Virus record (IMG/VR): IMGVR_UViG_3300044216_005818
Coordinates: 1,145 to 65,144 of that record
DNA from: a virus
Taxonomy: Duplodnaviria; Caudoviricetes
Length of the DNA: 64,000 nt
Direction: 5' to 3' (one strand)
The notes beneath the pieces are model-generated. The model made no database searches. It saw only the letters and a program-made list of their open reading frames with translations, and was not told the origin of the DNA. This document shows, piece by piece, positions 3,381 to 46,856 of this stretch. Made by a program: the position numbers and the translations under genes. Numbering within the stretch: the first letter of the stretch is position 1; each line of letters starts with the position of its first letter.

Positions 3381-5254
3381 TGGCATATAATACTAATAAT
3401 AATACAAGTAAAAAAGGCATAAGCTATTTAAATAAGGACTTTTCGGATTTTAAAAAAGCCTTAATTAATCTAGCAGAAGTATATTATCCGGATAATGTAA
3501 AAGACTTTTCTGAGGGTAGTCCTGGTACTATGTTTATTGAAATGGCTTCTTACGTAGGAGATGTACTATCTTTCTATACTGACGCTCAAGTACAAGAAAC
3601 TTTTTTACAATATGCCCAGGAAAGAGAAAATTTATATGCTTTAGCTTATAATCTAGGATATAGACCTGTAATAAGTAATCCTAGTATAGTTGAATTAGAG
3701 GTTTTTCAACAAATACCCGCATCAAGTGGATTACCTGATTATCGCTATGCATTAAGAATAGCTAAAAATTCTTCATTCCTTCCTAATAACAACACAGAAA
3801 TTAACTTCCTAACACAAAACGAAGTTAATTTTGCTTTTAGTTCATCTAATGACCCTACAGAACAAACAGTATATTCATTAGATGGAACAATTCCAGATTA
3901 TTATCTCTTAAAAAAGAAAGTTAAAGCTATAAGTGCTGAAATCAAAACTAAGTCTTTTGATATAGGGGCTGCTGAAAGGTTTAAAACCCTATCATTAGAT
4001 GATAGTAATATTATAGGTATACAATCAATACTCGATTCTGATGGAAATGAGTATGTAGAAGTACCTTATTTAGCACAAGAAACTGTATTTGAAGAAGTAC
4101 CTAATACAGAAGCTAACGATCCCGAATTAAAACAGTATAATAATCAGGTTCCTTTTTTATTAAGAAATAAAAAGGTTTCTAAAAGATTTGTATCTAGATT
4201 TAGATCTAATACAAACCTTGAAATTCAGTTTGGTGCTGGCTCTATAGGTGATGAAGATACAACTATAATTCCTAACCCTGATAATGTAGGTTTAGGAATT
4301 AAAGATGGAAGGTCTTTATTAGATTTATCATATGATCCTTCTAATTTTTTACACACTAAAGCATATGGGGAAGTTCCTTCAAATACTACTTTAACTGTAA
4401 CTTATTTAGTAGGAGGTGGAATTAATTCAAATGTAAATTCAAATACTATTACTAGAATAGGAGATGTAACCACAATTCCCCGACAAGGAGGATTAAATTC
4501 AGGTTTATTAACAGCAGCTGCAGATTCTGTAGCTTGTAATAACCCAGGTCCTGCTACTGGTGGGGGGCCAGGTGATACTGCTGAGGATATTAGATTAAAT
4601 GCTATTGCTAATTTTTCTTCTCAACAAAGAACTGTAACTAAAGAAGATTATTTATTTAGGTGTTTAGCTATGCCCCCACAATTTGGTTCTGTATCTAAGG
4701 CATATATGGCTCAAGATACCCAAATATCACTAGATACTAATAGAAGAGTAACTAATCCTAATGCCCTAAATTTATATGTTTTAGGATATGACACAAATAA
4801 AAACTTAGTAACTCTTAATGAAGCCGCCAAAATTAATTTAGCCACCTATTTAGAACAATACAGAATGTTAACTGATGCCATTAATATCAAAAATGCTTCT
4901 GTTATTAATTTTAAAGTAGAGTTTGGTATTTCTGTAAGATCTGGATTTTCTAATGATAGTGTGTTATTACAAAGTATCCAAGCCTTACAAGATTATTTTA
5001 ATGTAGATAATTGGCAAATTAACCAACCTATAGTAAAAGGAGACATAACAGGTATATTATATAATATAGATGGGGTATTAAATGTTAAAGACTTAGTTAT
5101 AGAAAACAAATTTGGAGAAAACTTAGGTTATTCTAAGTTCAAATATGATTTTGAATCAGCAACAAGAAATAATACTATATATCCATCATTAGATCCAAGT
5201 ATATTTGAATTAAAATATCCTAATACTGATATAATAGGTAGAGTAACATTATAA
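3380..5254 (+). CDS. Baseplate wedge protein, T4 gp6/baseplate-J-like
   Basis: DFSEGSPGTMFIEMASYVGDVLSFY, AYNLGYRP and QQRTVTKEDY motifs; directly follows gp25. Confidence 0.88.
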   Translation: MAYNTNNNTSKKGISYLNKDFSDFKKALINLAEVYYPDNVKDFSEGSPGTMFIEMASYVGDVLSFYTDAQVQETFLQYAQERENLYALAYNLGYRPVISNPSIVELEVFQQIPASSGLPDYRYALRIAKNSSFLPNNNTEINFLTQNEVNFAFSSSNDPTEQTVYSLDGTIPDYYLLKKKVKAISAEIKTKSFDIGAAERFKTLSLDDSNIIGIQSILDSDGNEYVEVPYLAQETVFEEVPNTEANDPELKQYNNQVPFLLRNKKVSKRFVSRFRSNTNLEIQFGAGSIGDEDTTIIPNPDNVGLGIKDGRSLLDLSYDPSNFLHTKAYGEVPSNTTLTVTYLVGGGINSNVNSNTITRIGDVTTIPRQGGLNSGLLTAAADSVACNNPGPATGGGPGDTAEDIRLNAIANFSSQQRTVTKEDYLFRCLAMPPQFGSVSKAYMAQDTQISLDTNRRVTNPNALNLYVLGYDTNKNLVTLNEAAKINLATYLEQYRMLTDAINIKNASVINFKVEFGISVRSGFSNDSVLLQSIQALQDYFNVDNWQINQPIVKGDITGILYNIDGVLNVKDLVIENKFGENLGYSKFKYDFESATRNNTIYPSLDPSIFELKYPNTDIIGRVTL

Positions 5255-19159: not shown

Positions 19160-22100
19160 ATGAAAGTAGCCCTTTTACCAGGTGGGTTTAAACCACCTCA
19201 TCTTGGACATTATAATATGGCAAAATATCTTGCAGATTTTGCTGATAATGTTATAGTAAGAATTGGATCAAAAGAACGAGAAGGTATAGGGCCTAGATTA
19301 GCTTTAGAAATTTTTAATTATTATAAAGCATCTGATCCAGATCCAAGAGCACAAAAACTTACTATTAGCTTAGCACAAGCTGCATCTCCTGTAAGAGATG
19401 TTTATGATTTTGTTGAAAAAATAGCTCCTGAAGGATCAGAGTTAATTTTAGGAATAGGGGAGAAAGATGCTAAAGACGGAAGATATAATAGTATCCCCAA
19501 ATTTGCAGAACCTCGTAATATTAAAGCTAAAATTGAATTAGTACCACCTCAAGCAGGGGGTATTTCAGGTACGCGTATGCGTGAAATTATTAAAAATAAT
19601 AATAAAGAAGAATTTTTTAAATTCATTCCTGAATTTTTACCTGAAGAAATTAAAGAAGAAATTTGGACTAAATTGTTAGATACTACTATGCCCACTGATA
19701 TAGATGAAATGATGGGTGGTACTATGAATCAACAAGAAATGAATAAACATATGGCTAATATGAAAAAGCTACGTAAATTCTTTTCTAAACAAGGCGACCA
19801 AATGACCCAAATCCCTACTAATTTGACTAAAGGATTACGTAGAAAATTATATGAAGGACGCTACGATGCAGAAACTTTAATAATATCCCGCTTTATTATA
19901 GATATGTTTAAGGATGAATTTGGTAAAAATTATGAAGATGATTTTGAAGAAATAGGAAAATTAAGGAGGTCCGATAAAAAAGAAGACACTGCGGTTTCTT
20001 ATGATTTAGAATTATATTTTTACCCTACTGACTTTGATAAACTAGGTCCAAACCCATTTATTGTAAATGCAGGTGCGGATGATGAATCAATGTTTATTCA
20101 AATTAACTATCAACCTGATATGTTTCCTAAAGCATATAATGATTTAATAGCTGAAATTAAAGATTCTGTAAGACATGAATTAGAACATATAGGGCAATTT
20201 CATTTTGATAAAGGAGTTAAAGGTGATTTAGAAAAAGACGAAAAAGATTTACCTACGTTTGAATATCTTACTTTAGATTATGAAATTCCTGCTCATGTAA
20301 TGGGGATTTATAAAAATGCTAAAACAAGAAAAATTTCATTTACTCAAGCATTACAGGATTTTATAGATAGTAAAGCCGAAGAACTATCTAATGATCAGGA
20401 AGATAAAATAACCCAAATTTATACAGATTATGCTCGTAAACATTTACCGGCAGCTAAATTAGATGAAGGTGATACTTACGAAAAAATGGCTGCTAAGGGT
20501 AAAAAAGCGGGCAACCTAAAACAGGGTACTGTTAGAAAACGTTTAAACATTCCTAAAGGTGAAAAAATACCTCTTTCATTAATTAATAAAGAGTTAGCAC
20601 GCCTTAGAAAAATGGAAAAGCGGAGTGCTAAAAACCAAAAGTATTATAAAGCACTTACATTAGCTAAAACGTTAAAAACTACAACTCATAAAGAAAATAT
20701 AGATCCTGAAGCTCAAAGAAAACATAAAGGTAAATCGGCCCCGTATGGTTCTGCTTATGAACCCGTGAAAGAAGGAGACCCTAAAGTAGGCACAGGTAAA
20801 AAACCAAAAGGATCAGGACGTAGACTTTATACAGATGAAGATCCTACAGATACAGTAAAAGTTAAATTTAGTACTAGACAAGATATAGTAAATACTTTAT
20901 CTAAAAAGTCATTTAAAGCTAAATCACATGCTCGCCAATCACAGATTATTAATTTAATTCATCAAAGAGTTAGAGCAGCTTTATCCCGGGCTAAAGATCC
21001 TGCAGTAAAAAAACGACTACGTTCGGCATTTGAATATATTAAAAAACGTAAAGAAGCTTCTAAAAGAAAAACACAACGCTTAAAAAAAGAAGGTATGTAT
21101 CCTCCTTATAAAGCTAATCAAGTACAACAAACTAGATATAAAGCAAGTGATACATTTACTAGAGATCCTAAAAAATCTAAAAAATTAGGATACCTTGAAG
21201 AAATAGGAATTGATTTATCTAACTATAGTGGTCAAATACTTCCTGGTGATGTTTTACGTGCTCCTAAAGGATTTCCATTAGGAGGTAAAAAATTAGAAAA
21301 ATCTAAAGTAGTAAAAGTAATTAAAAATTCTAGAGAAGGTGTCAATCGTTATAAATTATCCGTAGAAGATAAAGACGGTAAAAGATATACAGTGCGTAAT
21401 TTTGAAATGGATGGGGAATATAAAGGTAAAAAATTACCTAAATTTGGCCTTATTCGTAAATCTAAAAAAAATATAGATGAAATGAAATTATTTTCACAAG
21501 AATGGTGGTTTGATGTAATCGCTGAAGAAATATTATATGAAGGTGGTGCTGCTGGACATATGGCTCATCCATTTGATTTACCAAATGTTAAAACAGGTAA
21601 AGATTTAATTAAGTCATTTGAACAAGCTGCTGATAGTCTTAAAAAAGCACCTGGTAGTGTTAAGATAGATGGCGTAAATGCGTCAATTAGATTAATAAAT
21701 CTCGACGGAAAACGAATCTTCGCCATGGACCGCGGATCAAAAAAGGCACTTGATTTACGTGGCGTTACTAAAGCTGACTTAGAAGATAGATTTGGTGCTG
21801 GCCACGGGATGATTAAAGCTGGTGGTAATGTATTAGATATATTTAATGATGCCTTACCATCAATTCAAGAAGAATTAAGAGCATTGGGGTTAATTGATGA
21901 TCCTAATATTATGTTTAATATGGAGTATGTTAGTGGTAAATCAAATGTTCAAGACTATGGTAAAAATTTCCTAGCAATCCACGGTTTACTAAAAGTAGAA
22001 ACTAAAGAAGTACAAGGAGCTCGTAAAATGTTAACTAAAAGAGTAACATCTGAAAAACTATATGATAAAGCTGATTTAGAAGAATTACTTAAAAAATTAG

Positions 22101-22609
22101 AACCTTTTGCTAAAAAGAAAGGATTTGAAATTTATGGTTCTGTACCTACCAGATTTACTAAAGAACCAGATTTTAAATCTGCTTTAAACACCAAATACAC
22201 AATCGATACAGCCGAAGGCGATGAAACTAAAACTTTAGCCCAATGGTTAGATAGGGTTAATAGTATTCCTAAAACTGATCGTTTAAAAATGAATATTGAA
22301 GAAACTGACTCTATTAAAGATGTTGGTGCACTAAGTAAACAAGTATATTTTGCTGTATTTGGTGGTGAAAATGTAGACTCATTATTTAGTAGTGAACAAG
22401 AAGTTAATAAAGCAATCCAAGGAGCTACTACATACTTAGCAACAGAAAAGTTAGGCGACGCAATACTAGATGTGTTAGATTCACCTATGGGTTCTGTTAA
22501 TGATCACGAAGGTGTAGTTATACGTGATGATAAAATTTCACCTAGACCATTTAAAGTTACAGGTAAATTTATAACCGGAGGTGTATCCTCAGATTTTCAG
22601 AAAAAATGA
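19160..22609 (+). CDS. Multidomain protein: N-terminal HxGH cytidylyltransferase-like domain, HExxH zincin-like domain, basic modules, C-terminal ligase-type nucleotidyltransferase-like domain
   Basis: GGFKPPHLGH and ISGTRMR; VRHELEH; KIDGVN...NMEY...HEGVVIR...FKVTG. Confidence 0.7.
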   Translation: MKVALLPGGFKPPHLGHYNMAKYLADFADNVIVRIGSKEREGIGPRLALEIFNYYKASDPDPRAQKLTISLAQAASPVRDVYDFVEKIAPEGSELILGIGEKDAKDGRYNSIPKFAEPRNIKAKIELVPPQAGGISGTRMREIIKNNNKEEFFKFIPEFLPEEIKEEIWTKLLDTTMPTDIDEMMGGTMNQQEMNKHMANMKKLRKFFSKQGDQMTQIPTNLTKGLRRKLYEGRYDAETLIISRFIIDMFKDEFGKNYEDDFEEIGKLRRSDKKEDTAVSYDLELYFYPTDFDKLGPNPFIVNAGADDESMFIQINYQPDMFPKAYNDLIAEIKDSVRHELEHIGQFHFDKGVKGDLEKDEKDLPTFEYLTLDYEIPAHVMGIYKNAKTRKISFTQALQDFIDSKAEELSNDQEDKITQIYTDYARKHLPAAKLDEGDTYEKMAAKGKKAGNLKQGTVRKRLNIPKGEKIPLSLINKELARLRKMEKRSAKNQKYYKALTLAKTLKTTTHKENIDPEAQRKHKGKSAPYGSAYEPVKEGDPKVGTGKKPKGSGRRLYTDEDPTDTVKVKFSTRQDIVNTLSKKSFKAKSHARQSQIINLIHQRVRAALSRAKDPAVKKRLRSAFEYIKKRKEASKRKTQRLKKEGMYPPYKANQVQQTRYKASDTFTRDPKKSKKLGYLEEIGIDLSNYSGQILPGDVLRAPKGFPLGGKKLEKSKVVKVIKNSREGVNRYKLSVEDKDGKRYTVRNFEMDGEYKGKKLPKFGLIRKSKKNIDEMKLFSQEWWFDVIAEEILYEGGAAGHMAHPFDLPNVKTGKDLIKSFEQAADSLKKAPGSVKIDGVNASIRLINLDGKRIFAMDRGSKKALDLRGVTKADLEDRFGAGHGMIKAGGNVLDIFNDALPSIQEELRALGLIDDPNIMFNMEYVSGKSNVQDYGKNFLAIHGLLKVETKEVQGARKMLTKRVTSEKLYDKADLEELLKKLEPFAKKKGFEIYGSVPTRFTKEPDFKSALNTKYTIDTAEGDETKTLAQWLDRVNSIPKTDRLKMNIEETDSIKDVGALSKQVYFAVFGGENVDSLFSSEQEVNKAIQGATTYLATEKLGDAILDVLDSPMGSVNDHEGVVIRDDKISPRPFKVTGKFITGGVSSDFQKK

Positions 22610-22941
22610 AATTAAAAGATATATTAAACGAAATTACTATTAGTCGTAACATTGAAATCGACATTGTAGGTAATGATATTATGATAAAACAAGGTGACCG
22701 TGTAAATGGTAAACTTGTTAGTATTAGTATAGCCTATGTAGGAATGTCAGATCGCATTTATAGAGGCTATTTATTTGTAGATGATGGTGGATCTAGACCA
22801 CAACAAATAAACCTTGATGGTGGTGAAAGAGGATTATTTGAATTTTATGATGCTGTAGGTGCTGGAAGAGGAGCCCAAGCAAGAGAGTTTTTTGAAAAAT
22901 ATGGCGTTGAAATAAGGGCCACAGAATTTGATGTAAGTTAA
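22606..22941 (+). CDS. Hypothetical protein with MKLKDILNE leader (putative head-internal protein)
   Basis: Leader is almost identical to that of 46500..46856. Confidence 0.65.
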   Translation: MKLKDILNEITISRNIEIDIVGNDIMIKQGDRVNGKLVSISIAYVGMSDRIYRGYLFVDDGGSRPQQINLDGGERGLFEFYDAVGAGRGAQAREFFEKYGVEIRATEFDVS

Positions 22942-22946
22942 AAGTT

Positions 22947-23516
22947 ATGCTAAATAAAGAATTTAAAAGAAAAGATGTAGAACGTATGCGTAACCTTATT
23001 AAAGGTAAAACAGGCGAATCTGCTGAGTTGCAAGTTGGTTATACTGCAAAAAAAAAAGATTATAAAGAAGGAGATATCTGGGAAGAAGGGGGTAAAAGAT
23101 GGACTATTAAAGATGGTATAAAACAAACTTATACTAAACTTGATAGAGTTAAAAAAGAAGCTATTTTGCCTTTATTCTGCCCTAATTGTGGCTCTTTAAT
23201 GAAAAAGCGTTTAGATGCTAAAATGTATAAAATACATAAGACATGTTTTGATTGTGTAGTTGAAATGGAAGCTAAATTAAAACGTGAAGGTAAATATGAA
23301 GAGTATGAGCGTAAAATGATGATAGATAATGCTAAAGATATGGTAAACGATTATGAAACATATCTTTTAGAAGCTATAAATACATCAAATACTCAATATG
23401 TATCTGAAAGAGGTGAAGTAGAAAGATGGAAAGGAGGGGTAGATAAAGAAAAACTTACTAAAGAAATTAAAGAAGCAGTTTCAGAATTTAAAGAAAAACT
23501 AGAAGAAAATGATTAA
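22947..23516 (+). CDS. Hypothetical Zn-finger protein
   Basis: CPNC...CFDC motif and helical C-terminus. Confidence 0.65.
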   Translation: MLNKEFKRKDVERMRNLIKGKTGESAELQVGYTAKKKDYKEGDIWEEGGKRWTIKDGIKQTYTKLDRVKKEAILPLFCPNCGSLMKKRLDAKMYKIHKTCFDCVVEMEAKLKREGKYEEYERKMMIDNAKDMVNDYETYLLEAINTSNTQYVSERGEVERWKGGVDKEKLTKEIKEAVSEFKEKLEEND

Positions 23517-24384
23517 ATTGCGAGAACTTTTATTCGGCAAACCCGATTGTGATTGTGGTTGTGATGATTGTAATGGTACTAAACTTAATGAAGGAGTTAA
23601 AGTATCTGAAAATTTACAATACCATTTAGATAATAAAATCCCATTAGGTGAGTCAATTTTTAGAATTAGCTCTAACGCCCATGTTAAATTATTCGCAGAA
23701 ACCCGAAAACTATGGGAAGCTGGTAAAATGCAATTATCTGAAGCAGATGAATACTACATGCACACAGATGCTGGTCGTCAAGGAATGTATGGGGGTAAAT
23801 TAGTACCCCTTGATTTGCCATATATTATGGAAAGTAGTAGTGGTCCATTTGTATCTAAACACCCTTGGGCATATGGTCCTGATGATGAGTTTGGTAGGTT
23901 TACTTACTCAGATGAAATGGAATCTTTAGCTAAAATAGTAGCCGATAAAATGGGTGGAGAAGTAGAAGGATATGGTATAGAGGACGGTGAAATCATTGTT
24001 GCTACTAATGGTATGGAGTATATAGTTGATCGTCAAGGAAATGTTAAACCAAATAGTGAACGCCCTTCGTTTACTGGTCTTCCGTTTACTGAAGCTAAAA
24101 AACCAAAAAAGAAAAACCCACCATTAAATAAACCAAAACGAGGGGGTCCTAAGGCATATTATGTTTATGTAAGAGACCCTAGAACTAAAAAAGTTAAAAA
24201 AGTTACATTTGGTTCAGGTGGTTTAAAAGCAAAATTAGGAAATAAAGAAGCATCACAAGCATTTGCAAAAAGACATGATTGTAAAAATAAAAAAGATAGG
24301 ACTAAAGCTAGTTACTGGAGTTGCAACCTTCCTAGATATCATAAGCAGTTGGGTCTTGCAACACCTGCCTCAACTTTCTGGTAA
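23509..24384 (+). CDS. Modular putative head-internal protein with basic, Cys/His-containing C-terminal module
   Basis: MIKLRELL leader; C-terminal KKVKKVTFG...AKRHDC...ASYWSC module. Confidence 0.65.
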   Translation: MIKLRELLFGKPDCDCGCDDCNGTKLNEGVKVSENLQYHLDNKIPLGESIFRISSNAHVKLFAETRKLWEAGKMQLSEADEYYMHTDAGRQGMYGGKLVPLDLPYIMESSSGPFVSKHPWAYGPDDEFGRFTYSDEMESLAKIVADKMGGEVEGYGIEDGEIIVATNGMEYIVDRQGNVKPNSERPSFTGLPFTEAKKPKKKNPPLNKPKRGGPKAYYVYVRDPRTKKVKKVTFGSGGLKAKLGNKEASQAFAKRHDCKNKKDRTKASYWSCNLPRYHKQLGLATPASTFW

Positions 24385-24664
24385 ACCCTATACTGATATA
24401 ATAGAAGCGGACGGCACAACAAGTCGTCTGTTTTCTACTTTAACTAAACCAGAAGCCCTAAAATGGCATATGGATGATGAGGATAGAACCATTACAGTTC
24501 TTAATAAAACTAATTGGCAATTTCAATTTGAAGATCAATTACCCGTTTCTTTAAATAAGCCTATATTTATTGAGAGACATCAATGGCATCGTCTTATAAA
24601 AGGAGACGGTCCTTTAATGATTAGTATCTATAAACATGCAAGAACGCAAACTAACAAAACCTGA
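24263..24664 (+). CDS. Small cupin-like protein; true start uncertain
   Basis: KWHMDDEDR...FIERHQWHRLIKG fits a two-motif cupin metal site. The N-terminal ~39 codons overlap the upstream gene. Confidence 0.55.
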   Translation: MQKDMIVKIKKIGLKLVTGVATFLDIISSWVLQHLPQLSGKPYTDIIEADGTTSRLFSTLTKPEALKWHMDDEDRTITVLNKTNWQFQFEDQLPVSLNKPIFIERHQWHRLIKGDGPLMISIYKHARTQTNKT

Positions 24665-25397
24665 AGCTAAAGCTAAAGAGCGTATAGTAAAAGATTTAAA
24701 GGGAGCTAAGGCTGACTTTAAAAAACGCTATGGTAAAGATGCTAAAGCCGTTATGTATGCTACTGCTACTAAACGTGCTAAAAAAATAGCCGAAACAGAC
24801 TGTGGTTGTGGTAAAAAAGGCCAATGTGAAAGTCTTAAAACTAATGCTGTTATTAATGAGTTAATTGAAGATTTAGTTTACGAAGAATTATGTAAACGTG
24901 GTAAAGCTTACATAGCTGCTCGTAAAAGAGCGGGAGAAAAATCATCTGCATATCTATCTGGACGCGCTGTAAAAGTATGCAAAGGACAAATTAAAGGTGC
25001 AGGAGGTAAAAGAAAAAAATCTTATAAAAATGAATCCCTATATAACCAACTTAAACCACAAGTATTAAATCATTTAGAAGAATTATTTAATGATCCTCAT
25101 TTTGCGATAATTGCAGAATATAATGTTGAAGAGGCTAATATAGATGAAAGTTTAAGAAACTGGTTTAAAAGAGAAAATTGGGTTCGTATTGATACCCAGG
25201 GAAATATAGCAGGTAAGTGTGGTACAATGCCTAAGGGTAAAGCAACACAACGTTGCTTACCTAGAGCTAAAGCAAAATCACTTACTAAAGCCCAACGCAG
25301 AGCTACAGCTAGAAAAAAAGTTAGAGGTAGTAAAAAAGGAAAACAATTTGTTAGAAATACTAAAAAAGCTAAAGTTAGCTTTAAAAAGAAAAAATAA
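24636..25397 (+). CDS. Basic modular putative head-internal protein
   Basis: K/R-rich modules separated by x-x-E junctions; LCKRG...AVKVCKG module is paralogous to 27274..27525. Confidence 0.65.
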   Translation: MQERKLTKPEAKAKERIVKDLKGAKADFKKRYGKDAKAVMYATATKRAKKIAETDCGCGKKGQCESLKTNAVINELIEDLVYEELCKRGKAYIAARKRAGEKSSAYLSGRAVKVCKGQIKGAGGKRKKSYKNESLYNQLKPQVLNHLEELFNDPHFAIIAEYNVEEANIDESLRNWFKRENWVRIDTQGNIAGKCGTMPKGKATQRCLPRAKAKSLTKAQRRATARKKVRGSKKGKQFVRNTKKAKVSFKKKK

Positions 25398-25399
25398 TT

Positions 25400-25714
25400 A
25401 TGGCAAGAAAAGTAAATGCAAAAACCCAAATTAAAAAACTTCTTGATAAAACTGAAGTTGATGAAAAGTTATTAGGCAAAATAAAAGAGGCCTTAGAAAA
25501 AACAGACGTTGATGATAAAATTTTAGACGCTTATACTGACGCTAAAGAATCTGGTTTACTAGATAAAATTAAGTGCTATATAAAGTGTTATGGAGGATAT
25601 GTATTAGCGGTAGGAGCTGGTTGTTTATTTGGAGTTAATGTTTGGTGGGGCTTAGGTTTCCTAGTCGCAGCAGGTGTTTGGGCAAATAAAGTAACAGCTT
25701 GTCCTTTAAAATAA
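25400..25714 (+). CDS. Small membrane protein (holin candidate)
   Basis: Charged N-terminus and a C-terminal hydrophobic hairpin (GGYVLAVGAGCLFG / VWWGLGFLVAAGVWA). Confidence 0.5.
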   Translation: MARKVNAKTQIKKLLDKTEVDEKLLGKIKEALEKTDVDDKILDAYTDAKESGLLDKIKCYIKCYGGYVLAVGAGCLFGVNVWWGLGFLVAAGVWANKVTACPLK

Positions 25715-25723
25715 TATAATAAC

Positions 25724-27274
25724 ATGGATTTTTTAGACGAAGCAGTATATAATATAAAAAAAGGTGCCATGCCACCTGATCCTGAATCATTAGATAAGGA
25801 TGATGTTGTAAACATTGGTGAAAAAAAATTAGACCCTGTTGGTAAAGAAGACGATGACATTAATAATGATGGAAAAGTAAATAGTACTGATAAGTACTTA
25901 GCTAATAAAAGAAAGGCAATAGCTAAAGCTCTTTTAAAGTCTAAAAAAACCATTAAAAAAGAAGATCTTGAAGAAGGTAAGTTATCTAATGCTTTAGGTG
26001 GTGCTGCTATGCTTGCAAGTTTATTATTAATAGGTAAACTTAATTCAAACGATAAAGTAGTACAACGTTTAAAAGCCGAATATGAACAAGCAGAACCAGC
26101 TCAAAAAGATTCTATTCAAAATCTATTAACTAAAAGATTAATATTTTTAGATACGGGAGAGTTTGATGATTCTACCCCTATGGATGAAAATGTTGCTTTA
26201 AAAGGATTAGATGCCGTAGGAGGATTTATAGCTAGGGGATTAAGTAAACTTACCTCTTCAGAAAAAATTAAACTTACAGGAGTTATAGATGCCCTTGATA
26301 AACTTATTGATATACCTGATATCCCTGATGATAAAAAAACGTTTTTAAAAAACACTATCAAGGATTTAGAAGCAGGGAAGGAAAGTCCTTTTAAAGGAGA
26401 TAAAAAAAAAGAAAAAGAATTTTTTGATTTTTTAGATAAAACCTCTATTTCTAAAGAAGAAAAAGAAGCTATTATGAAACAAAATAATAATCTTAAAAGT
26501 AAAGAACAAATTAAAGGAACCGGAGGCAAAACTTTAGTAGACCCATCTGGTAAGCCTATTACACGAGCTGATATGAAAGAAGATAAAAAAGAAGAATTTA
26601 ACTATAAGGCTCCTAAAGATAAAGATAAGGATGATATTAAAATAGATCCTGATACCCAATTTAAAGTTGATTTAAAACACCTTATTCAAAAACACATGAT
26701 GGAAGGTAAGTCTAAAGAAGATGTAATCAAACTTACTAAAAAATTAATGGCTAAACTTCATAATAAAGGTGAAGTTAAAATCGATGGTACTACACTTATA
26801 TTTAAAGAAGCTGATGTCCCTCAAGATACACAACTAGCCCTTCCAGAACCACCTAAACGTACAGCAAACTTTTTAGGTCCTGATAATATGGATTATGAGG
26901 GGGGAATGGCAAAATCACAAATGCTTAAAATGAAAAATTATGCTAAAGCATTATGTGATATGATTGATGATGAAACACAATTAGAGTCATGGGTCCAAGC
27001 TAAACTAACTAAAGCTTCTGATTATATGTCTTCAGTTTACCATTATTTAGATTATCAACGCACTAAAAATGTAAATGAAGCAATGATTAGTGGTAAAAAA
27101 GTTGATCCTAGAAGTTTAGAAGGTGAAGACAATATGTTTACTTATGCCGAATTTATGGATGGTACTAAATTAACTGATGATGAATTAGATCAATTAACTG
27201 ATGATGGTGATATGCTATATAGTTACTTTGGTCCTGGTGGTGTAGGACATGTCCCTAGAAGTGATTTTATGTAA
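25724..27274 (+). CDS. Modular putative head-internal protein
   Basis: DDDINNDGKVNSTDKYL is an EF-hand/dockerin-like loop; DYEGGMAKSQ...WVQAKLTKASDY helical module; many x-x-E junctions. Confidence 0.65.
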   Translation: MDFLDEAVYNIKKGAMPPDPESLDKDDVVNIGEKKLDPVGKEDDDINNDGKVNSTDKYLANKRKAIAKALLKSKKTIKKEDLEEGKLSNALGGAAMLASLLLIGKLNSNDKVVQRLKAEYEQAEPAQKDSIQNLLTKRLIFLDTGEFDDSTPMDENVALKGLDAVGGFIARGLSKLTSSEKIKLTGVIDALDKLIDIPDIPDDKKTFLKNTIKDLEAGKESPFKGDKKKEKEFFDFLDKTSISKEEKEAIMKQNNNLKSKEQIKGTGGKTLVDPSGKPITRADMKEDKKEEFNYKAPKDKDKDDIKIDPDTQFKVDLKHLIQKHMMEGKSKEDVIKLTKKLMAKLHNKGEVKIDGTTLIFKEADVPQDTQLALPEPPKRTANFLGPDNMDYEGGMAKSQMLKMKNYAKALCDMIDDETQLESWVQAKLTKASDYMSSVYHYLDYQRTKNVNEAMISGKKVDPRSLEGEDNMFTYAEFMDGTKLTDDELDQLTDDGDMLYSYFGPGGVGHVPRSDFM

Positions 27275-27525
27275 TGCAACCCTTAATTAGAGAATATATT
27301 AGACAATATTTAGAAGAAGCACTATGTAAAAGAGGATATGCTTATATAGCTAAAAGAAAACGACAAGGTGAAAAACATAATCCGTTTTTAATGGCTAGAG
27401 CAGTTAAAGTATGTAAAGGACAAATAAAAGGAGTAGGAGGTAAACAGAAAAAAGATTTTAGACCAGGTAAAGGTAAAAAAAGATCAGCACAAGGTAGAAA
27501 ACCAGATATAGTATCTAATAAATGA
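27274..27525 (+). CDS. Small basic protein, paralogue of a module in 24636..25397
   Basis: LCKRGYAYIAKRKRQGEK...RAVKVCKGQIKG. Confidence 0.65.
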   Translation: MQPLIREYIRQYLEEALCKRGYAYIAKRKRQGEKHNPFLMARAVKVCKGQIKGVGGKQKKDFRPGKGKKRSAQGRKPDIVSNK

Positions 27526-27962
27526 ATAAATTAACTGAACAACGGCTAAGACGTAAAATACGTCAAATAATAAGAGAGGAACGTGAATATCAACTTCGCC
27601 AATTATCTCCTGGGGCACATAGTGCTTTAGGACAAGATACTTTAGGTATTCCTCCTTCAGCTGTAGTTGATGTTAAAATTATTAAAGCACCAAAACCAGT
27701 TTTTAAATGTTTTTTAGACAATGGCCAATCATTTAATTTAATTGATAATGGTGAATATATGCAAGCTGATATTAATCGTATTTTATTTGATTTAGATAGA
27801 ACAGATGACATTAAGGGCGCAAAATATGAGCTTGAAAAATTAATGCAAAAAGGTAGCATTAAAAAAGACGATGAAGAAACTGAAACAGATATATCAGCAG
27901 CTGAACCAGACACACCTGCTGCAGAACCCGCAGACGAACCAGTAGATGAACCCGAAGTATAA
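27522..27962 (+). CDS. Hypothetical protein with acidic tail
   Basis: LRRKIRQIIREE leader; ATGA-type coupling. Confidence 0.6.
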   Translation: MNKLTEQRLRRKIRQIIREEREYQLRQLSPGAHSALGQDTLGIPPSAVVDVKIIKAPKPVFKCFLDNGQSFNLIDNGEYMQADINRILFDLDRTDDIKGAKYELEKLMQKGSIKKDDEETETDISAAEPDTPAAEPADEPVDEPEV

Positions 27963-28357
27963 TGAATAATAATCCAGAATTTAAACAAGCCCTAATGGGT
28001 ATTTATAAGGACGGGTGTAAAAAATTCAATATCCGAAACACCCCCATAGTAATACTCCGCAAAGATGCCGAAAATGGGGCAATGACTTTAGGTCGTACTG
28101 CTTATTATGATCCTTCTGAATTAAAAATAGTATTATATATTACAGGACGTCATCCTAAAGATATACTTAGATCATTTGCTCATGAATTAATCCACCACGT
28201 TCAAAATGAAAGGGGTGATTTACACTTAGGGGACTCAAGCGATCCCCAATATGCCCAAAACGACGAACATCTTCGCAAAATGGAAAAAGAAGCATATTTA
28301 CAAGGAAATTTATTAATGAGAGATTTTGAAGATAATTTTAAGTATCAACAAGAATAA
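27962..28357 (+). CDS. Zincin-like metallopeptidase-family protein
   Basis: LGRTAYY...ILRSFAHELIHHVQ...MEKEAY: HExxH plus downstream Glu. Confidence 0.6.
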   Translation: MNNNPEFKQALMGIYKDGCKKFNIRNTPIVILRKDAENGAMTLGRTAYYDPSELKIVLYITGRHPKDILRSFAHELIHHVQNERGDLHLGDSSDPQYAQNDEHLRKMEKEAYLQGNLLMRDFEDNFKYQQE

Positions 28358-31371: not shown

Positions 31372-33000
31372 ATGAATAAAAACGAAATCAAGCAAATTAT
31401 ACTTGAAGAAATCGAAGCTGTTATGAATGAAATGGCTTCCCCTGAGCAATTAGCCGCAGATTCACGTCCCGAAGAAGATGATTTTTCTCTCGAGGATGAA
31501 ATGGAAATGGCAAGAGATTTTAATGATGAACAAGATGCTATATTTGGTAAACCTAACTTTGTAGAAGAAGAAGGTTTAGAAGAAATGGCTCGTACATCTA
31601 ATGTTTTTAAGCTTAGCCAAGAAGCTAGCATGAAAGATGTTCTTCAATTTATGCAACGTGTAAACGATGTTTTAAAAACATATAAATCACCAGGACAAAA
31701 GCGCCCTAAAAAGCGTTTTACACCTGAAGAAATGAAAACCCTAGCTACAGCAATGCTTAAGCCTGAGGGCTTTACTTCTAAGGATGTAATTGCTGCTACT
31801 TCATATAATAGCCCAGCTCAAGCAAATAAGTTCTTAAAAGCGCTTGAAATGAAAGGTTTAATCACATTAACTTCTCAACTTAAAAAAGCAATGGAACCAA
31901 CTCGCGATCCAAATGCTCCTGAAACTAGGGGTAGAAAGAGAAGAGACGCAGAATTTGATATGTCAGATGATCCAATGGCTGACTTAGATGCCTTAGGCTT
32001 AGGAGGTAATATTGATCTAAGCGATCCATTAGCAGAAATCTCAATGAAAACTTTTGCAAGCGCTTTTAATAAAGCCTTAGAAAGGGGCGAAGTTAAACGT
32101 GCTGAAAACTTGTCTAATACCTTTTTTAGAAACTTTATAGGGCAAGAATTTTCATTTGGTAAAATAACAGACATAGAATTATTGCAATTTGACGGATTGT
32201 CAATGGTAATGGGTAGGGATGGTACAATGAAACCTACTCGAGGTGGAAAAGCTGGAGTAGGGGGTGTTAAAATTCAAGTTGATGTTACATCTGGGAAAAA
32301 TCTTGTTACAGGAGGAAGCATGCCTTATTTAATTAGATATGATATTCAACCTGATAGAATTACTACTAAAAGTATAACTAAACAAACTGATACAGGCATT
32401 GAAATGGTTCCTATAGAAAGAAGAGACGCAAGGCTTATACAGAAAATAGTTACTACTATATACCCAGGTACAAAATATGCTACAGGAACAGAAGGATTTA
32501 ATATTAAAGGATTAAGAGAAAACAACAACACCATGAGTGAATTAGAAAAATACATTAAAAAAGTAATCAAAGAAGCTAAAAATCCATTAGCTAAAAAGAT
32601 GAAAGAAATCGAAAACCAAGGACGCAGAGCAGCCCTTGAAACTAAACTTGCAGCAATCGATGAAATGATCGAAGAAACTGAAGGTCGTTTAACTCGTATT
32701 GATGAAGATAATGAGTTTAGAGACATGATGGATAAGAATGCTGTTAAAGAAGTTCGCAAGCAACTTAAAGAACTTGAAAGAGCTAAAGCCAAACTTCAGA
32801 AAGAATACGGTAAAATGAAAAAAATGGCTTTACCTAAAAACTATGATGAAGACGAAAAAGGCAAAGTGATGGACGAAGAAGCACCTGTAGCTGAAGATGC
32901 TATTGATGCTGCTATTGATGAAGTTGAATTAGAAGAAGATAACTTTGAACTTAATGAATCAGTTAAACGTATGCAAAAATTAGCTAACCTTAAAGGTTAA
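31372..33000 (+). CDS. Acidic modular protein with a winged-helix-like segment; putative prohead/internal protein
   Basis: ATG 31372 is preferred to TTG 31348, which abuts the ATATTTAT motif. GFTSKDVIAATSYNSPAQANKFLKALEMKGLI resembles a wHTH; C-terminal coiled coil. Confidence 0.65.
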   Translation: MNKNEIKQIILEEIEAVMNEMASPEQLAADSRPEEDDFSLEDEMEMARDFNDEQDAIFGKPNFVEEEGLEEMARTSNVFKLSQEASMKDVLQFMQRVNDVLKTYKSPGQKRPKKRFTPEEMKTLATAMLKPEGFTSKDVIAATSYNSPAQANKFLKALEMKGLITLTSQLKKAMEPTRDPNAPETRGRKRRDAEFDMSDDPMADLDALGLGGNIDLSDPLAEISMKTFASAFNKALERGEVKRAENLSNTFFRNFIGQEFSFGKITDIELLQFDGLSMVMGRDGTMKPTRGGKAGVGGVKIQVDVTSGKNLVTGGSMPYLIRYDIQPDRITTKSITKQTDTGIEMVPIERRDARLIQKIVTTIYPGTKYATGTEGFNIKGLRENNNTMSELEKYIKKVIKEAKNPLAKKMKEIENQGRRAALETKLAAIDEMIEETEGRLTRIDEDNEFRDMMDKNAVKEVRKQLKELERAKAKLQKEYGKMKKMALPKNYDEDEKGKVMDEEAPVAEDAIDAAIDEVELEEDNFELNESVKRMQKLANLKG

Positions 33001-36581: not shown

Positions 36582-37427
36582 ATGAAACCTAAGCATTCCA
36601 AGTACAAAAATACGGGAATATTATTTGAATTATTAACGAGGCAAATTACTTCGGAGACTATTTCAAATTCTTCCCCTAAAGCTGTAGGTATTTTAAAAAA
36701 GTTTTTTAGTAATAATTCTAATTTACTAAAAGAATATCAAATATATCACGCTCTTCTTAATAAAAAGTTTAATAAAGAAGCAAACGCTACTGTGTTGTTA
36801 GAAACTTTAGTTGATGCACACAATAAATTAAATAAATCTACTTTAAGGAGAGAAAGATATAATTTAGTTAGAGAAATAAAAGATACTTATAATATAGAGG
36901 ACTTTTTTAAAGCAAAAATTCCTAATTATAAAATATATGCTAGCATATATAATTTATTAGAGAATAAAAATGCTAATCCTATGTCTGTAGTAGACTCTAA
37001 AGTAGCTATATTAGAACATATTACTAATAAAAATCTTCCTAATAAACCTAAAAAAGAAATGGTTATGGAAGAATATGAAAAATTTGATAAAGAAACTAGA
37101 GCATTAACATATAAAATGTTAATGGAAAAGTTTAATGAAAAATATTCTGGGTTAGGGGATAATCAAAAACGTTTATTAAAAGAATATGTTTATAATGTTT
37201 CTAATAGTCCTAAACTTAAAGCTTTTTTAAATAAAGAAATTAAAACTATTAAAGAAGAATTAGAAACTTTATCTAAAAACACAGATCAAGTTACTAAAAT
37301 AAAATTAACAGAGGTAAAAAATTTAATTAAACCTCTTTGTAAAAAATCATCGGTACATGATGATAATGTAATTAATTTATTAAATTACTATTCATTAGTT
37401 AATGAATTAAGAACTGCACAAGCATGA
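36582..37427 (+). CDS. Helical prohead-associated hypothetical protein
   Basis: 281-aa ORF between portal and protease, preceded by two ATATTTAT motifs. Confidence 0.6.
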   Translation: MKPKHSKYKNTGILFELLTRQITSETISNSSPKAVGILKKFFSNNSNLLKEYQIYHALLNKKFNKEANATVLLETLVDAHNKLNKSTLRRERYNLVREIKDTYNIEDFFKAKIPNYKIYASIYNLLENKNANPMSVVDSKVAILEHITNKNLPNKPKKEMVMEEYEKFDKETRALTYKMLMEKFNEKYSGLGDNQKRLLKEYVYNVSNSPKLKAFLNKEIKTIKEELETLSKNTDQVTKIKLTEVKNLIKPLCKKSSVHDDNVINLLNYYSLVNELRTAQA

Positions 37428-37612
37428 ATATAGAAGAACTTAAATCCCTTATCCGTGAACTTATTAAAACGGAAATCGAAGAAGGCTCAACTACCGGCAC
37501 TGGTGCTTCTATTACTACTGGTAATAGCGAAGCTTATGCTACACCTAGAGCATTCGGAAATAATAAAAGAAAAAAAAGAAGGGGTTATATGGGATATAAA
37601 GAAGTAAAATAA
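37424..37612 (+). CDS. Small prohead core-like protein
   Basis: LKSLIRELIKTEIEE leader followed by a basic tail. Confidence 0.55.
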   Translation: MNIEELKSLIRELIKTEIEEGSTTGTGASITTGNSEAYATPRAFGNNKRKKRRGYMGYKEVK

Positions 37613-37619
37613 ATAAGTT

Positions 37620-37760
37620 ATGGCAAGAAAAATTAGCGCATTCGATTTTAATAAAAAAGATAATAAAGTAAATAGACCCGGTATCCATGCTAAAACTAAG
37701 CATAGTAACCATAAAAACTCTAAAAACTATAGAAAACTGAATAGAGGCCAAGGAAGATGA
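37620..37760 (+). CDS. 46-aa highly basic peptide (absent from the ORF track)
   Basis: MARKISAFDFNKKDNKVNRPGIHAKTKHSNHKNSKNYRKLNRGQGR; fills the gap exactly and overlaps the protease start (ATGA). Confidence 0.65.
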   Translation: MARKISAFDFNKKDNKVNRPGIHAKTKHSNHKNSKNYRKLNRGQGR

Positions 37761-38362
37761 AACAATTACTTATAGAACATATACCGTTTAAAGTAGATAA
37801 ACTTTTAGTTGAACAATCTATTAAAGAAAATAAACCTTTAAGAGTAGGTGGTATTATACAAAGAGCTGGTGTTAAAAACCATAATGGTAGAATCTATGAG
37901 CAAAAAATTCTCGAAAGAGAAATTAAAAAATATATTGATGGTCCTGTTAGAGAAAAAAGAGCCCTGGGTGAATTAGATCACCCAGACTCTTCTGTTATTA
38001 ATTTAAATAACGTATCTCATAATATAGTAGAAGTTACTATGAAGGGAAACGATGTACATGGAGTAGTAGAAATATTAACTACCCCTGCGGGAAATATTTT
38101 AAAAGAATTATTTCGTTGTGGAGTTACAGTTGGTATATCTTCTAGAGGTATGGGTTCAGTAGAAGAAAATGCTGATGGTGTATTAATGGTACAAGAAGAT
38201 TTTGATCTTCTATGCTTTGATTTTGTTTCAACACCTTCTACTCCGGGTGCTTATATGGCTCCTATGAATGAGGGAGTAAATACCTCCACAACAGACTATA
38301 TTAAAGTTAATAGTATTATTAGAGATATAATCTGTGATAATACAGGAATGTGTAAGTGTTAA
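37757..38362 (+). CDS. Prohead protease (T4 gp21-like)
   Basis: NHNGRIY, ALGELDHP, SHNI, VGISSRGMGS and DFVSTPS. Confidence 0.93.
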   Translation: MKQLLIEHIPFKVDKLLVEQSIKENKPLRVGGIIQRAGVKNHNGRIYEQKILEREIKKYIDGPVREKRALGELDHPDSSVINLNNVSHNIVEVTMKGNDVHGVVEILTTPAGNILKELFRCGVTVGISSRGMGSVEENADGVLMVQEDFDLLCFDFVSTPSTPGAYMAPMNEGVNTSTTDYIKVNSIIRDIICDNTGMCKC

Positions 38363-38786: not shown

Positions 38787-39968
38787 ATGGCTGAATTATT
38801 AAAAGAGGCAATCGCTGATGCGAAAGCTGTTAGAGAAGTCGCTTTACAAAATGCTAAAATGGCATTAGAAGAAGCGTTTGACTCTAAAATTAAAAACATG
38901 CTCTCTGCTCGGTTAGCAGAAGAGTTAGAAGAAGATGTCGAACTCGAAGAGACATATGATGAAGACGAAAAGTCTGAAGGTATGTCTTATGATGAGGACG
39001 ATAAAGTAGATGAGATGTCTTATGATGAAGACGATGTTGATGAAGCTTATCACGAAGATGAAGTTGACGAAGAAATTAACCTTGATGAACTCATGGCTGA
39101 GCTTGAAGAAATGTCATATGATGAAGACGATGACATGAAAGAAGGCAAAAAGAAAGACGATGATGACATGAAAGAAGGTAAGAAAAAAGACGACGACGAC
39201 ATGAAAGAAGGTAAGAAAAAAGACGACGACGACATGAAAGAAGGTAAGAAGAAGGATGACGATGATCTTAAAGAAGGTGAAGTCAATGAACTTGCTGGCT
39301 TAGCTACTGTTGCTAGTATAATTGCTGCCGCGGGTGGTATTGAAGCTATCTTATCTAAAGGTCGTGCTGGTAAACTTTCTGGTAAAATGGAATCCGTTTA
39401 CAAAGCTTTAGAAGGCATGGCTAGCGGTGCTGGCGCTGCCCGTAGAAGTGAAGGTGTAGACGATCTTGATGAAAACATCGACATTGATGCTTTAATTGCT
39501 GAAATCGAATCTGAAATCGAAGAAGGTAAAAAGAAGGACGATGATGACATGAAAGAAGGTAAGAAAAAAGACGATGATGACGTAAAAGAAGGTAAGAAAA
39601 AGGCTGAAAAAGACCTTGAAGAAGCCCTTGCTACCGTTGCTTCTCTTAAAGAAACCATTTCAGAAATGAATCTTCTTAACAGTAAACTCCTCTACTGCAA
39701 CAAACTATTCAGAGCTAATGCACTTACTGAAGCCCAAAAAGTTAAAGTAATTGATGCATTAGACAAATCTGCTACAACTAGTGAAGCTAAATTGGTATTT
39801 GAAACACTTCAAGAATCATTTAACTTTACAGGTGTAGAAAAAAGAGCAATTAAAGAAGGTTTAGGACGTGCTTCTAAAGCTGCTGGAACTGCTCCTAAAA
39901 AGGTTATAACGGAATCCGTTGACGAGACAGTGTCAAGATTCCAAAAACTTGCAAACATTAATAAATAA
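38787..39968 (+). CDS. Prohead scaffold/core protein (T4 gp22-like)
   Basis: Very acidic, lies between protease and MCP; C-terminal LNSKLLYCNKLF...LTEAQK.KVI; ends RFQKLANI. Confidence 0.82.
   Translation: MAELLKEAIADAKAVREVALQNAKMALEEAFDSKIKNMLSARLAEELEEDVELEETYDEDEKSEGMSYDEDDKVDEMSYDEDDVDEAYHEDEVDEEINLDELMAELEEMSYDEDDDMKEGKKKDDDDMKEGKKKDDDDMKEGKKKDDDDMKEGKKKDDDDLKEGEVNELAGLATVASIIAAAGGIEAILSKGRAGKLSGKMESVYKALEGMASGAGAARRSEGVDDLDENIDIDALIAEIESEIEEGKKKDDDDMKEGKKKDDDDVKEGKKKAEKDLEEALATVASLKETISEMNLLNSKLLYCNKLFRANALTEAQKVKVIDALDKSATTSEAKLVFETLQESFNFTGVEKRAIKEGLGRASKAAGTAPKKVITESVDETVSRFQKLANINK
39123..39278 (+). repeat. 33-bp coding tandem repeat (DDDDMKEGKKK, ~4.7 copies)
   Basis: gacgacgacgacatgaaagaaggtaagaaaaaa-like units, in frame, differing mostly at synonymous positions. 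Confidence 0.95.
39522..39602 (+). repeat. Second cluster of the scaffold repeat (~2.5 copies)
   Basis: EGKKKDDDDMKEGKKKDDDDVKEGKKK. Confidence 0.9.
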
Positions 39969-45345: not shown

Positions 45346-46500
45346 ATGGCAACTATTACTATTTGGCCCGGGTCCTCATCATTTTCTAATACTACAAATC
45401 CTACACCATTTGGTTTTTATGATTCTGATTCAGAATTTCAAACCAATGCGGATAAAGTATCAACCTGGTGTGCTCAAAGATTAGGATACCCTATAGTAGA
45501 TATAGAATTACAAGCTGTAAATTTCTACACAGCATTTGAAGAATCCATTACAACATATGCTCAATACCTTTATCAATACGAGATAATTGAAAATATGAGT
45601 ACTTTAGATGGATCGCCCGCTGAAAATGATTTAAATAACCAATATATACAACCTAACTTAGGCAATTTAATATCTGTTGCAGAACAATATGGAACTGAAG
45701 CAGGTACAGGAGGTAACTTAGATTATAAAACAGGTAGTATAGATGTAGTTTCAGGACAACAAAGATATTCATTAACAGATCTATTTACAAATGTAAGTGA
45801 ATCGGGTAATAATATTGAAATTAAAAAAATATATCATTATGCTCCAGCTGCTATAGTAAGGTATTTTGACCCATATGCTGGAACAGGTACAGGTATTCAA
45901 TCATTAATGGAAACCTTTGGGTTTGGTAATTATTCACCTGGTGTAAACTTTATGTTAATGCCTACTTATTATGATGCTTTAAAAGTTCAAGCTATTGAAC
46001 TTAATGATCAAATTAGAAAATCTGCTTATAGCTTTGAAGTAACTAATAATAATAATTTAAAATTATTCCCTATACCTAGAAGAGACGAAAAATTATTCTT
46101 TGATTATGTCGTTAAAGATGGTAGAAATAACCCAGTAAGAAACACTTCAACTAATTTAGTTACAGATGTTTCTAATGTACCTTATACAAATATTTCTTAT
46201 GAAACTATAAATGCCCCAGGTAGACAATGGATTTTTAGATACACATTAGCTATTGCTAAAGAAATGTTAGCTAGTATAAGAGGTAAATATTCATCAATTC
46301 CTATTCCGGGTGCCGATGTTACTACTAATGCAGGTGAATTAAGAAGCGAAGCAGCTTCAGAAAAACAAGCACTTATAGAAGAATTAAAATTAATGCTTGA
46401 AGAATCCTCAAGAGCTAAATATACTGAAAGAGATGCTCAAATAGCACAAAACACACAAGATGTTATGTATAAAGTACCCTATCCAATATATATTTACTAA
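45346..46500 (+). CDS. Neck/head-tail adaptor (T4 gp13-like)
   Basis: QRLGYPIVDIEL, WIFRYTLAIAKEML..IRGKY and NAGEL..EA..E...L.EEL. Confidence 0.8.
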   Translation: MATITIWPGSSSFSNTTNPTPFGFYDSDSEFQTNADKVSTWCAQRLGYPIVDIELQAVNFYTAFEESITTYAQYLYQYEIIENMSTLDGSPAENDLNNQYIQPNLGNLISVAEQYGTEAGTGGNLDYKTGSIDVVSGQQRYSLTDLFTNVSESGNNIEIKKIYHYAPAAIVRYFDPYAGTGTGIQSLMETFGFGNYSPGVNFMLMPTYYDALKVQAIELNDQIRKSAYSFEVTNNNNLKLFPIPRRDEKLFFDYVVKDGRNNPVRNTSTNLVTDVSNVPYTNISYETINAPGRQWIFRYTLAIAKEMLASIRGKYSSIPIPGADVTTNAGELRSEAASEKQALIEELKLMLEESSRAKYTERDAQIAQNTQDVMYKVPYPIYIY

Positions 46501-46856
46501 TGGTTAAATTAAAAGACATATTAAACGAAATTATACAAATATATTCTGTAAGTGTAGTGATAGTATCCGATAATGATGCTAACTTTACTGATATTCTTGA
46601 TGGGATGAGAGCTACTAGAAAAGTCACAATTATTAATGCTAACACTTCTGATGAAATAGAAGCAAAAAACAGAGCTAGAAATGATGGAAAAGAAATCCAC
46701 ACTGCTACTTTAAAGTTTGCAGCTGGAAAAGATCCTAAACAAGATTTAGAATTTTTAAAAACTACTATGTTAAGTAGTGATAAAGGTGATCCCGAAATGA
46801 GGATCAAAGGGTTACGTCATTTAATTTTTAAACCTGAAACTTTAACTAAAGTATAA
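46500..46856 (+). CDS. Hypothetical protein with MVKLKDILNE leader
   Basis: Coupled between the gp13-like and gp14-like genes; leader shared with 22606. Confidence 0.65.
   Translation: MVKLKDILNEIIQIYSVSVVIVSDNDANFTDILDGMRATRKVTIINANTSDEIEAKNRARNDGKEIHTATLKFAAGKDPKQDLEFLKTTMLSSDKGDPEMRIKGLRHLIFKPETLTKV

Follow-up and report, generated by a model that had tools for sequence, protein, structure and literature searches.

We analysed a 64,000-nucleotide stretch of a virus of the Caudoviricetes (IMG/VR record IMGVR_UViG_3300044216_005818, positions 1,145 to 65,144). This stretch, hereafter the window, covers almost the whole of a viral contig of 65,144 bases and has a G+C content of 33%. On its plus strand, positions 19160-22609 hold an uninterrupted reading frame of 1149 codons that encodes a polyprotein of 1149 residues. 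The chain is made of about ten unrelated units, and the joints between them read hydrophobic-x-Glu. Judging from sequence and structure comparisons, the polyprotein is probably head cargo that is built into the prohead, cut at its joints by the Peptidase_S77 prohead protease encoded in the same window, and injected with the DNA with which its pieces are kept. The initial annotation of the sequence had proposed a head-packaged, protease-cut cargo polyprotein; the comparative evidence below supports that reading, and no refutation test made in silico contradicted it.

The window also encodes baseplate, primase, terminase and portal proteins, an acidic scaffold-like protein and a gp23-type capsid protein. 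The source phage is a marine T4-like phage, and its lineage is one of marine phages distant from T4. When the whole polyprotein was used as the query, Pfam returned a single sub-threshold match (CTP_transf_like), PHROGs returned one match only ('cytidyltransferase'), and a phmmer search of the Protein Data Bank (PDB) gave no meaningful match. No LPD or MuF domain was detected in it by Pfam.

Joints of the polyprotein lie in predicted linkers

The reading frame and all eight junction motifs listed in the initial annotation are present where it placed them. With a slash marking the putative cut, they are Glu183 (DIDE/MM), Glu232 (KLYE/GR), Glu436 (KLDE/GD), Glu538 (PVKE/GD), Glu644 (LKKE/GM), Glu681 (YLEE/IG), Glu774 (NIDE/MK) and Glu794 (ILYE/GG). 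A further probable site that it had missed, Glu512 (THKE/NIDP), lies at a breakpoint peak near residue 510 in the homologues described below.

The anatomy of the chain was taken from an AlphaFold model built on 66 homologues. Residues 1-178, 235-432 and 800-1145 were modelled with confidence, as were helical basic segments at about 455-505 and 560-645. The predicted local distance difference test (pLDDT) score fell below 50 in residues 179-193, 212-217, 223-232, 435-453, 507-560, 647-670, 676-734 and 746-798. Eight of the nine junction sites fall inside these low-confidence linkers, and Glu644 stands three residues before one. The ILYE/GG site is unpacked from the ligase-like domain that follows it. 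Domain boundaries in the model thus coincide with the x-x-E sites. The position of the sites in predicted linkers is a stronger test than a count of the motif. Counted in this single protein alone, motif enrichment is weak evidence: hydrophobic-P3 Glu is modestly enriched in the low-pLDDT linkers (Fisher p = 0.04), and three [LI]xEG sites fall in the polyprotein out of 20 in the 20,533 residues of window reading frames.

At the nucleotide level the joints share just the codons of the motif (GATGAA, TATGAA GG) and no longer microhomology, so the conservation of the junctions is at the protein level. Recombination at shared nucleotide joints was considered as the source of the motif and ruled out, as no microhomology extends past the codons and the motif is degenerate at the amino-acid level.

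Homologues are shuffled at the same sites

The polyprotein matches 2043 representative clusters at E values up to 0.001, and more than 1000 relatives of 770-1364 residues occur in marine metagenomes. Architectures were compared by running BLAST with the query on the first 120 homologues, and they proved variable among these. In one homologue the query segments occur in the order 1-436, 540-774, 434-496, 771-1149, and in another the order is 1-440, 647-681, 536-647, 777-1149. Modules are also deleted, or split by the foreign domains DUF6973, DUF5661 and DUF192, exactly at junction sites. Breakpoints peak at residues 183, 229, 433-436, 510, 538/539, 643-647, 681, 765-774 and 788-795. Related genomes therefore hold the reshuffled and lone modules that the initial annotation had suggested looking for, with boundaries at the sites it had named.

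We then catalogued the sequence that follows each module end in 298 proteins, which gave 427 distinct contexts for nine module types. Glu occupies exactly P1, the last residue of the module, in 73% of them. A hydrophobic-x-Glu motif lies within -2 to +6 residues of the module end in 83% of contexts, compared with 19.5% at random control positions, so x-x-E sites are about four times commoner at module boundaries than elsewhere. P3 is Leu in 48%, Val in 21%, Ile in 20% and Tyr in 8% (L/V/I in 89%), P2 is free, and P1' is varied (Gly 38%, Met 12%, Asn 10%, Lys 9%). KLYE alone precedes at least 23 different downstream sequences in homologues.

A second breakpoint analysis made no use of the sites named beforehand. 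It took the 743 sharp alignment ends between homologue pairs at least 60% identical. The alignment stopped on a Glu in 39% of these contexts (background, 7.7%), and hydrophobic-x-Glu lay within 3 residues on either side in 61%, compared with 14% at random. This set supersedes an all-against-all version that lacked the identity filter and was too noisy (26.5% vs 14%). Intermodule spacers of only 3-5 residues also end in the motif, as in TTTN/VNE/x, GYLED/NAVDE/GDTY and KKQ/KTNE/x. The HExEH module is absent from 96 of 236 long homologues, and the junction motif is therefore independent of the embedded HExxH module.

Modules found as separate genes start at the same joints, or carry N-terminal leaders of 10-15 residues that end in the motif. 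The stand-alone frame P0234, with the start MYPMYNA, begins precisely at the 644/645 joint, and in P0252 the module starting at that joint stands behind the ten-residue leader of MIKILDILME/MYPPYK. In P0260 the HxGH module (GGFKPP) stands behind the leader MNQLTKFLVDGILNE. The lone ligase-like module, of about 350 residues, starts either MGGAAGHM or with a leader of 5-25 residues ending hh-x-E/GG (M....LLxE/GGAAGHM).

These data bear on the possibility that the protein is a multidomain enzyme which stays uncleaved and acts as a single chain, either in the virion or in the cytoplasm, with joints that are linker features or scars of gene fusion. It would then resemble the polyvalent proteins, phage polypeptides of two to 15 unrelated domains that are predicted to be packaged in the virion and injected (PMC5512222; virion-borne polyvalent proteins are also predicted in PMC9503650). 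Transfer at full length is reported for some polyvalent proteins (PMC5512222), the gene here adjoins replication and nucleotide-metabolism genes, and the Met residues just past two joints (MMGG, MKLFS), and in GMYPPYK, resemble fusion scars. However, passive linkers would not hold an invariant Glu together with L/V/I at P3 while P2 and P1' vary, and spacers of 3-5 residues would not be rebuilt with the motif at their end. A single chain is also not needed for function, because the modules are separately encoded in other genomes. We consider an uncleaved chain unlikely.

Modules of the polyprotein

Module NT (19160-19708, plus strand, as are all modules below; residues 1-183, ending DIDE) carries the motifs GGFKPPHLGH (PHLGH) and ISGTRMR of HxGH/ISxTxxR nucleotidyltransferases. 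Its match to Pfam CTP_transf_like (E = 0.011, 16.4 bits) is under the cut-off of 21. It was modelled with a pLDDT of about 90 and superposes on the nicotinate mononucleotide adenylyltransferase 3h05_B (VIA Z 14.6, rmsd 2.9, 153 residues); Foldseek gave TM scores of about 0.7 against PPAT and NMNAT. By its motifs and Rossmann-like fold, the module is a predicted HxGH adenylyltransferase of the NMNAT/PPAT type. It is followed by connector L1 (19709-19855; residues 184-232), a basic, leader-like peptide of 49 residues with low pLDDT that starts MM and ends KLYE.

Module ZN (19856-20467; residues 233-436, ending KLDE) is an acidic alpha/beta module. Conservation reaches at least 90% at its first and last residues, G233 and E436, and its RHExEH..Q..E motif is nearly invariant. 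Modelled alone it reached a pLDDT of 87.6. No solved fold matched it: the best hit of a wide VIA search had a Z of 6.0 over helices only, and Foldseek hits in the PDB had E values above 0.4. In BFVD it matched uncharacterised phage proteins only, among them a stand-alone 241-residue protein of an uncultured phage (E = 2.4e-10). The nearest named cluster in the ESM Atlas was LPD23, at only 0.88. Structural matches to the metallopeptidases HtpX, 4l7a, SprT-like and IrrE were faint and non-significant. A zincin-like metallopeptidase was considered for this module; the RHExEH motif is kept and no match to the zincin fold was found. Because no known fold matched in VIA, Foldseek or BFVD, a peptidase identity was not assigned.

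Between the enzymes lie small, basic predicted pieces, 26-106 residues long and with isoelectric points (pI) of 8.3-11. Peptides B1 (residues 437-512, pI 10.5) and B1b (residues 513-538) occupy 20468-20773, end in THKE and PVKE, and are bounded by the breakpoint peaks at 510 and 538/539. The helical module B2 (20774-21091; residues 539-644, pI 11.0) has a pLDDT of 84-94 over residues 560-645 and ends in LKKE, a loose fit with Lys at P3. In the podovirus HTVC033P, gp40 is the B2 module as a plain frame of 96 residues with neither a leader nor a terminal motif. The HTVC033P (Pelagibacter phage) region 3998-4536 encodes gp40 and gp39, both small and very basic and related to B2 and to the C-terminus of the window gene at 24636; this likeness shows that the basic units circulate outside T4-like phages. 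Peptide B3 (residues 645-681, ending YLEE) and the beta-rich module SH (residues 682-774, ending NIDE) together span 21092-21481.

Leader L2 (21482-21541; residues 775-794) is an amphipathic acidic helix of 20 residues that starts MKLFS and ends ILYE; the model gives a helix at 780-790 and disorder from there to residue 798. In some homologues this leader stands before other cargo modules (ITEELIYE/ELCKRG). Module LIG (21542-22609; residues 795-1149), whose first residues are GGAAGHMxHPFD, resembles nucleotidyltransferases of the ligase/capping type. Among 24 family members its invariant residues follow the ligase order: K835-x-D-G, E922, E1117-G1118 and K1132. It was modelled with a pLDDT above 90 and aligns weakly with T4 Rnl1 (9do4_B; VIA Z 8.0, rmsd 4.3, 189 residues). 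It had no Pfam match and no sequence match in the PDB, even with a profile of 24 relatives (best E = 0.21).

The head protease and its other predicted substrates

The proposed processing enzyme is the prohead protease at 37757-38362 (plus strand), 15 kb downstream of the polyprotein gene (Pfam Peptidase_S77, PF03420, E = 2.5e-30; phrog_207, E = 2e-54). T4 gp21, of the same Peptidase_S77 family, cleaves after L/I-x-E (PMC9026906), and the LIE at residue 7 of the protease here has a counterpart in LIE-9 of gp21 (PMC9026906). In T4, capsid-targeting sequences of ten residues with a terminal L/I-x-E load internal proteins, Alt and foreign fusions into the head (PMC9026906, PMC3012670). Their processing is blocked when Asp stands at P1 (PMC9026906). 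Just upstream of the protease gene, a frame of 112 residues (37424-37760) opens with MNIEELKSLIRELIKTEIEE/G and may encode a small protein of the prohead core, comparable to T4 gp67 or gp68.

As the initial annotation had observed, the signature of the polyprotein joints recurs in the major capsid protein leader and in the scaffold. The leader of the gp23-type capsid protein (39980-40132, plus strand; Pfam Gp23, E = 9e-79) holds three L-L-E sites, NTLLE/GA (residue 8), SGLLE/GL (residue 34) and AVLLE/NQ (residue 51). All three are kept in Flavobacterium phage vB_FspM_immuto, the closest cultured relative, whose capsid protein is 54% identical. The acidic scaffold-like protein (38787-39968, plus strand) holds 17 h-x-E[GAM] sites. 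Eight of its repeats read (M/L/V)KE/GKKK; they are near-identical, D-rich and about 11 residues long (DDDD-M/L/V-KE-GKKK), and each has a putative cut site. By its sequence, this scaffold would be chopped to very short charged peptides.

A second alternative accepts cutting by the prohead protease and denies delivery. The polyprotein would be an accessory core or scaffold protein whose fragments exit the head, or a set of enzymes of the producing cell that is disposed of by cleavage. Fragments of the T4 core proteins gp22, gp67 and gp68 do exit the head (PMC9026906), and the scaffold described above carries the motif many times. However, three folded, conserved enzyme-like domains with intact catalytic motifs are not expected in a disposable scaffold, and the basic peptides are like DNA-bound internal proteins in charge and size. 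Cutting without delivery is thus quite improbable.

Least probable, and in our view very doubtful, is self-cleavage by the embedded HExxH module with no part for the head protease: such self-processing by an embedded zincin-like metallopeptidase is a published proposal for polyvalent proteins (PMC5512222), and the near-invariant RHExEH..Q..E motif and the faint matches to metallopeptidases fit it, but many long homologues lack the HExEH motif, neighbouring mosaic proteins that have no HExxH module show similar hydrophobic-x-Glu sites, the capsid protein and scaffold bear the same motif, VIA and Foldseek detected no zincin fold, and Glu at P1 with a hydrophobic P3 is the reported signature of the gp21 family.

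Proposed route of the polyprotein and points against it

From the modules, their joints and the protease gene we infer targeting, cleavage, retention in the head, injection and enzyme substrates as follows. The full-length chain would enter the prohead core, to which the amphipathic leader-like segments L1 and L2, resembling capsid-targeting sequences, may bring it. The Peptidase_S77 protease would then cleave after the Glu of the exposed (L/V/I/Y)-x-E in each linker, and about ten products are expected. Three of them would be a ligase-like enzyme (38.9 kDa), which gains the new N-terminus GGAAGHM, the HExxH module (23.9 kDa) and an adenylyltransferase of the NMNAT/PPAT type (20.6 kDa). Two short leaders would also be freed, together with five small modules or basic peptides of pI 8.3-11, which, like the internal proteins of T4, could bind the packaged DNA. 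The enzymes would enter the host with the DNA and act ahead of any phage gene expression. Plausible roles are resynthesis of nucleotide cofactors of the NAD type and repair of nucleic-acid ends against host defences. Modules could be gained, lost, permuted or split into their own genes with their function kept, because each has its own cut site; such a site for each module would explain the shuffling that we observe.

Several observations weigh against head cargo. The polyprotein gene lies directly after the DNA primase gene and not among the head genes, a placement shared by phage immuto. It is on the terminase strand, 10 kb upstream of terminase, with thymidylate kinase and other metabolic genes in between. 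The chain has no leader at its N-terminus, where MKVALLPGGF forms strand 1 of the Rossmann fold, and its leader-like segments, L1 and L2, are internal only. The end of B2 alone departs from the junction code, with Lys or Arg at P3. A few relatives of the ligase-like module (P0145, P0146, P0206 and P0204) have Cys or Met before GG(A/S)AGHM (LLxCG/G), perhaps because another protease acts in those lineages or because no cut is made. The homologue counts are phylogenetically non-independent, and kinship by itself would account for the S77 protease present on three of five long IMG/VR contigs that carry close relatives. We found no virion proteome of a relative in the literature.

Beyond this one protein, we see an even chance that the hydrophobic-x-Glu joint serves as a plug-and-play code. 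Modules flanked by it would be mobile between polyproteins and leader-bearing single genes. The more than 1000 marine chains would then make up an arsenal of injected effectors that is combinatorial in composition and matured by a single head protease. It would include an orphan ligase-like family whose working N-terminus, GGAAGHMxHPFD, is made by the cut.

Upstream sequence and neighbouring genes

The 28-nucleotide gap 5' of the polyprotein gene contains TATATGTATAA, which has one mismatch to TATATTTATAA, a sequence that sits just upstream of portal, phoH and several further genes of the head-tail region. This likeness is a weak hint of co-expression with the head-tail genes. Separately, the motif (T)ATATTTATA(A) occurs about 15-25 nucleotides before many gene starts (for example 34656, 36551, 41728, 42653, 43355 and 45321). 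In the head-tail region it is placed, for several genes, between the preceding stop codon and the next start, and it may be the phage's late promoter.

Three neighbouring genes of the window, all on the plus strand, are internal modules of polyproteins elsewhere. The 253-residue basic protein at 24636-25397 is 66% identical to residues 672-886 of P0014, where its counterpart is an internal module block flanked by ...GYTED/IDE/ and ...LNKE/G. The basic protein of 83 residues at 27274-27525 has the leader MQPLIREYIRQYLE and is 71-78% identical to internal parts of P0152 and P0137. The 131-residue HExxH protein (HELIHH) at 27962-28357 is 40-50% identical to internal or terminal parts of P0276, P0148, P0265 and P0199, and its HELIHH module is present also in immuto gp182.

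The region 22606-28357 as a whole is a block of small mosaic proteins, basic or acidic, several of which are built of units that polyprotein homologues also contain. One unit with Cys residues, LCKRG..AVKVCKGQIKG, is found twice, once each in the genes at 24636 and 27274. Two unrelated proteins, at 22606-22640 and 46500-46533, share the leader MKLKDILNE with 27 of 28 nucleotides identical; it resembles the MIKILDILME leader before the polyprotein module in P0252. An acidic protein of 542 residues at 31372-33000 has the leader MNKNEIKQIILE/E, a C-terminal third dense in hydrophobic-x-Glu sites and no PHROG match; it may be another core or cargo protein.

Significance

Head-packaged proteins processed by gp21 and multiply cut head proteins of giant phages are already established. 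In our literature searches we did not find, together, a chain of independent enzymes and peptides with the motif of a trans-acting head protease at every joint and the shuffling of its modules between such chains and single genes with leaders. If the head-cargo reading is true, the polyprotein strategy of other viruses would extend to tailed phages. A stoichiometric set of enzymes and DNA-binding peptides would reach the capsid through a single translation product, a single targeting event and a single protease. The head-cargo reading would also explain how abundant marine phages quickly swap injected effectors. The cofactor-making and ligase-type enzymes would point to an early counter-defence, before transcription. 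Hydrophobic-x-Glu in a disordered joint would be a sequence rule for spotting head cargo in uncultured phages, and the chain would offer a natural design for loading multiple foreign proteins into T4-type capsids.

Comparison with known systems

The closest mechanistic parallel is the set of T4 internal proteins IPI, IPII and IPIII and the enzyme Alt. There, too, an S77 protease cuts after hydrophobic-x-Glu, short amphipathic leaders end in the motif, and small basic proteins accompany an enzyme in diverse, fast-changing cargo sets (PMC9026906, PMC3012670). In contrast, T4 uses one gene for each cargo with a single N-terminal leader of 10 residues, whereas the chain described here joins up to ten units with a cut site at each joint and has no N-terminal leader. 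Alt is an ADP-ribosyltransferase, whereas the chain here is predicted to carry a ligase-like domain and an HxGH adenylyltransferase.

The polyvalent proteins, which occur in phages and in conjugative elements (Iyer, Burroughs, Anand, de Souza and Aravind 2017; PMC5512222), are likewise large, with unrelated domains in variable architectures and often an HExxH module. For these, embedded peptidases, either zincin-like or C-terminal and assemblin-like, were proposed to bring about release, whereas the uniform motif here fits a protease encoded in trans.

In the giant phages phiKZ, 201phi2-1 and SPN3US (gp175/gp245), proteases related to gp21 process many head and ejection proteins, often at multiple sites (PMC10052503, PMC9026906). 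They cut after (S/A/G or A)-x-Glu (PMC10052503, PMC9026906), so that P3 is small rather than L/V/I, and 13 of the 14 sites mapped in SPN3US serve to remove and fragment N-terminal propeptides of a single mature protein (PMC10052503). Unlike the cleavage proposed here, this does not separate a chain of independent enzymes.

The nearest counterpart in a cultured phage is immuto gp182 (907 residues, annotated as NMNAT). Its modules are arranged differently, about 290 residues are added at the N-terminus, and the ligase-like module is missing. Like the polyprotein, gp182 is encoded near primase in a phage with an S77 protease, combines the HxGH module with both HExxH modules, and joins its parts at TLAE/A, VVKE/G and VMAE/GRYD.

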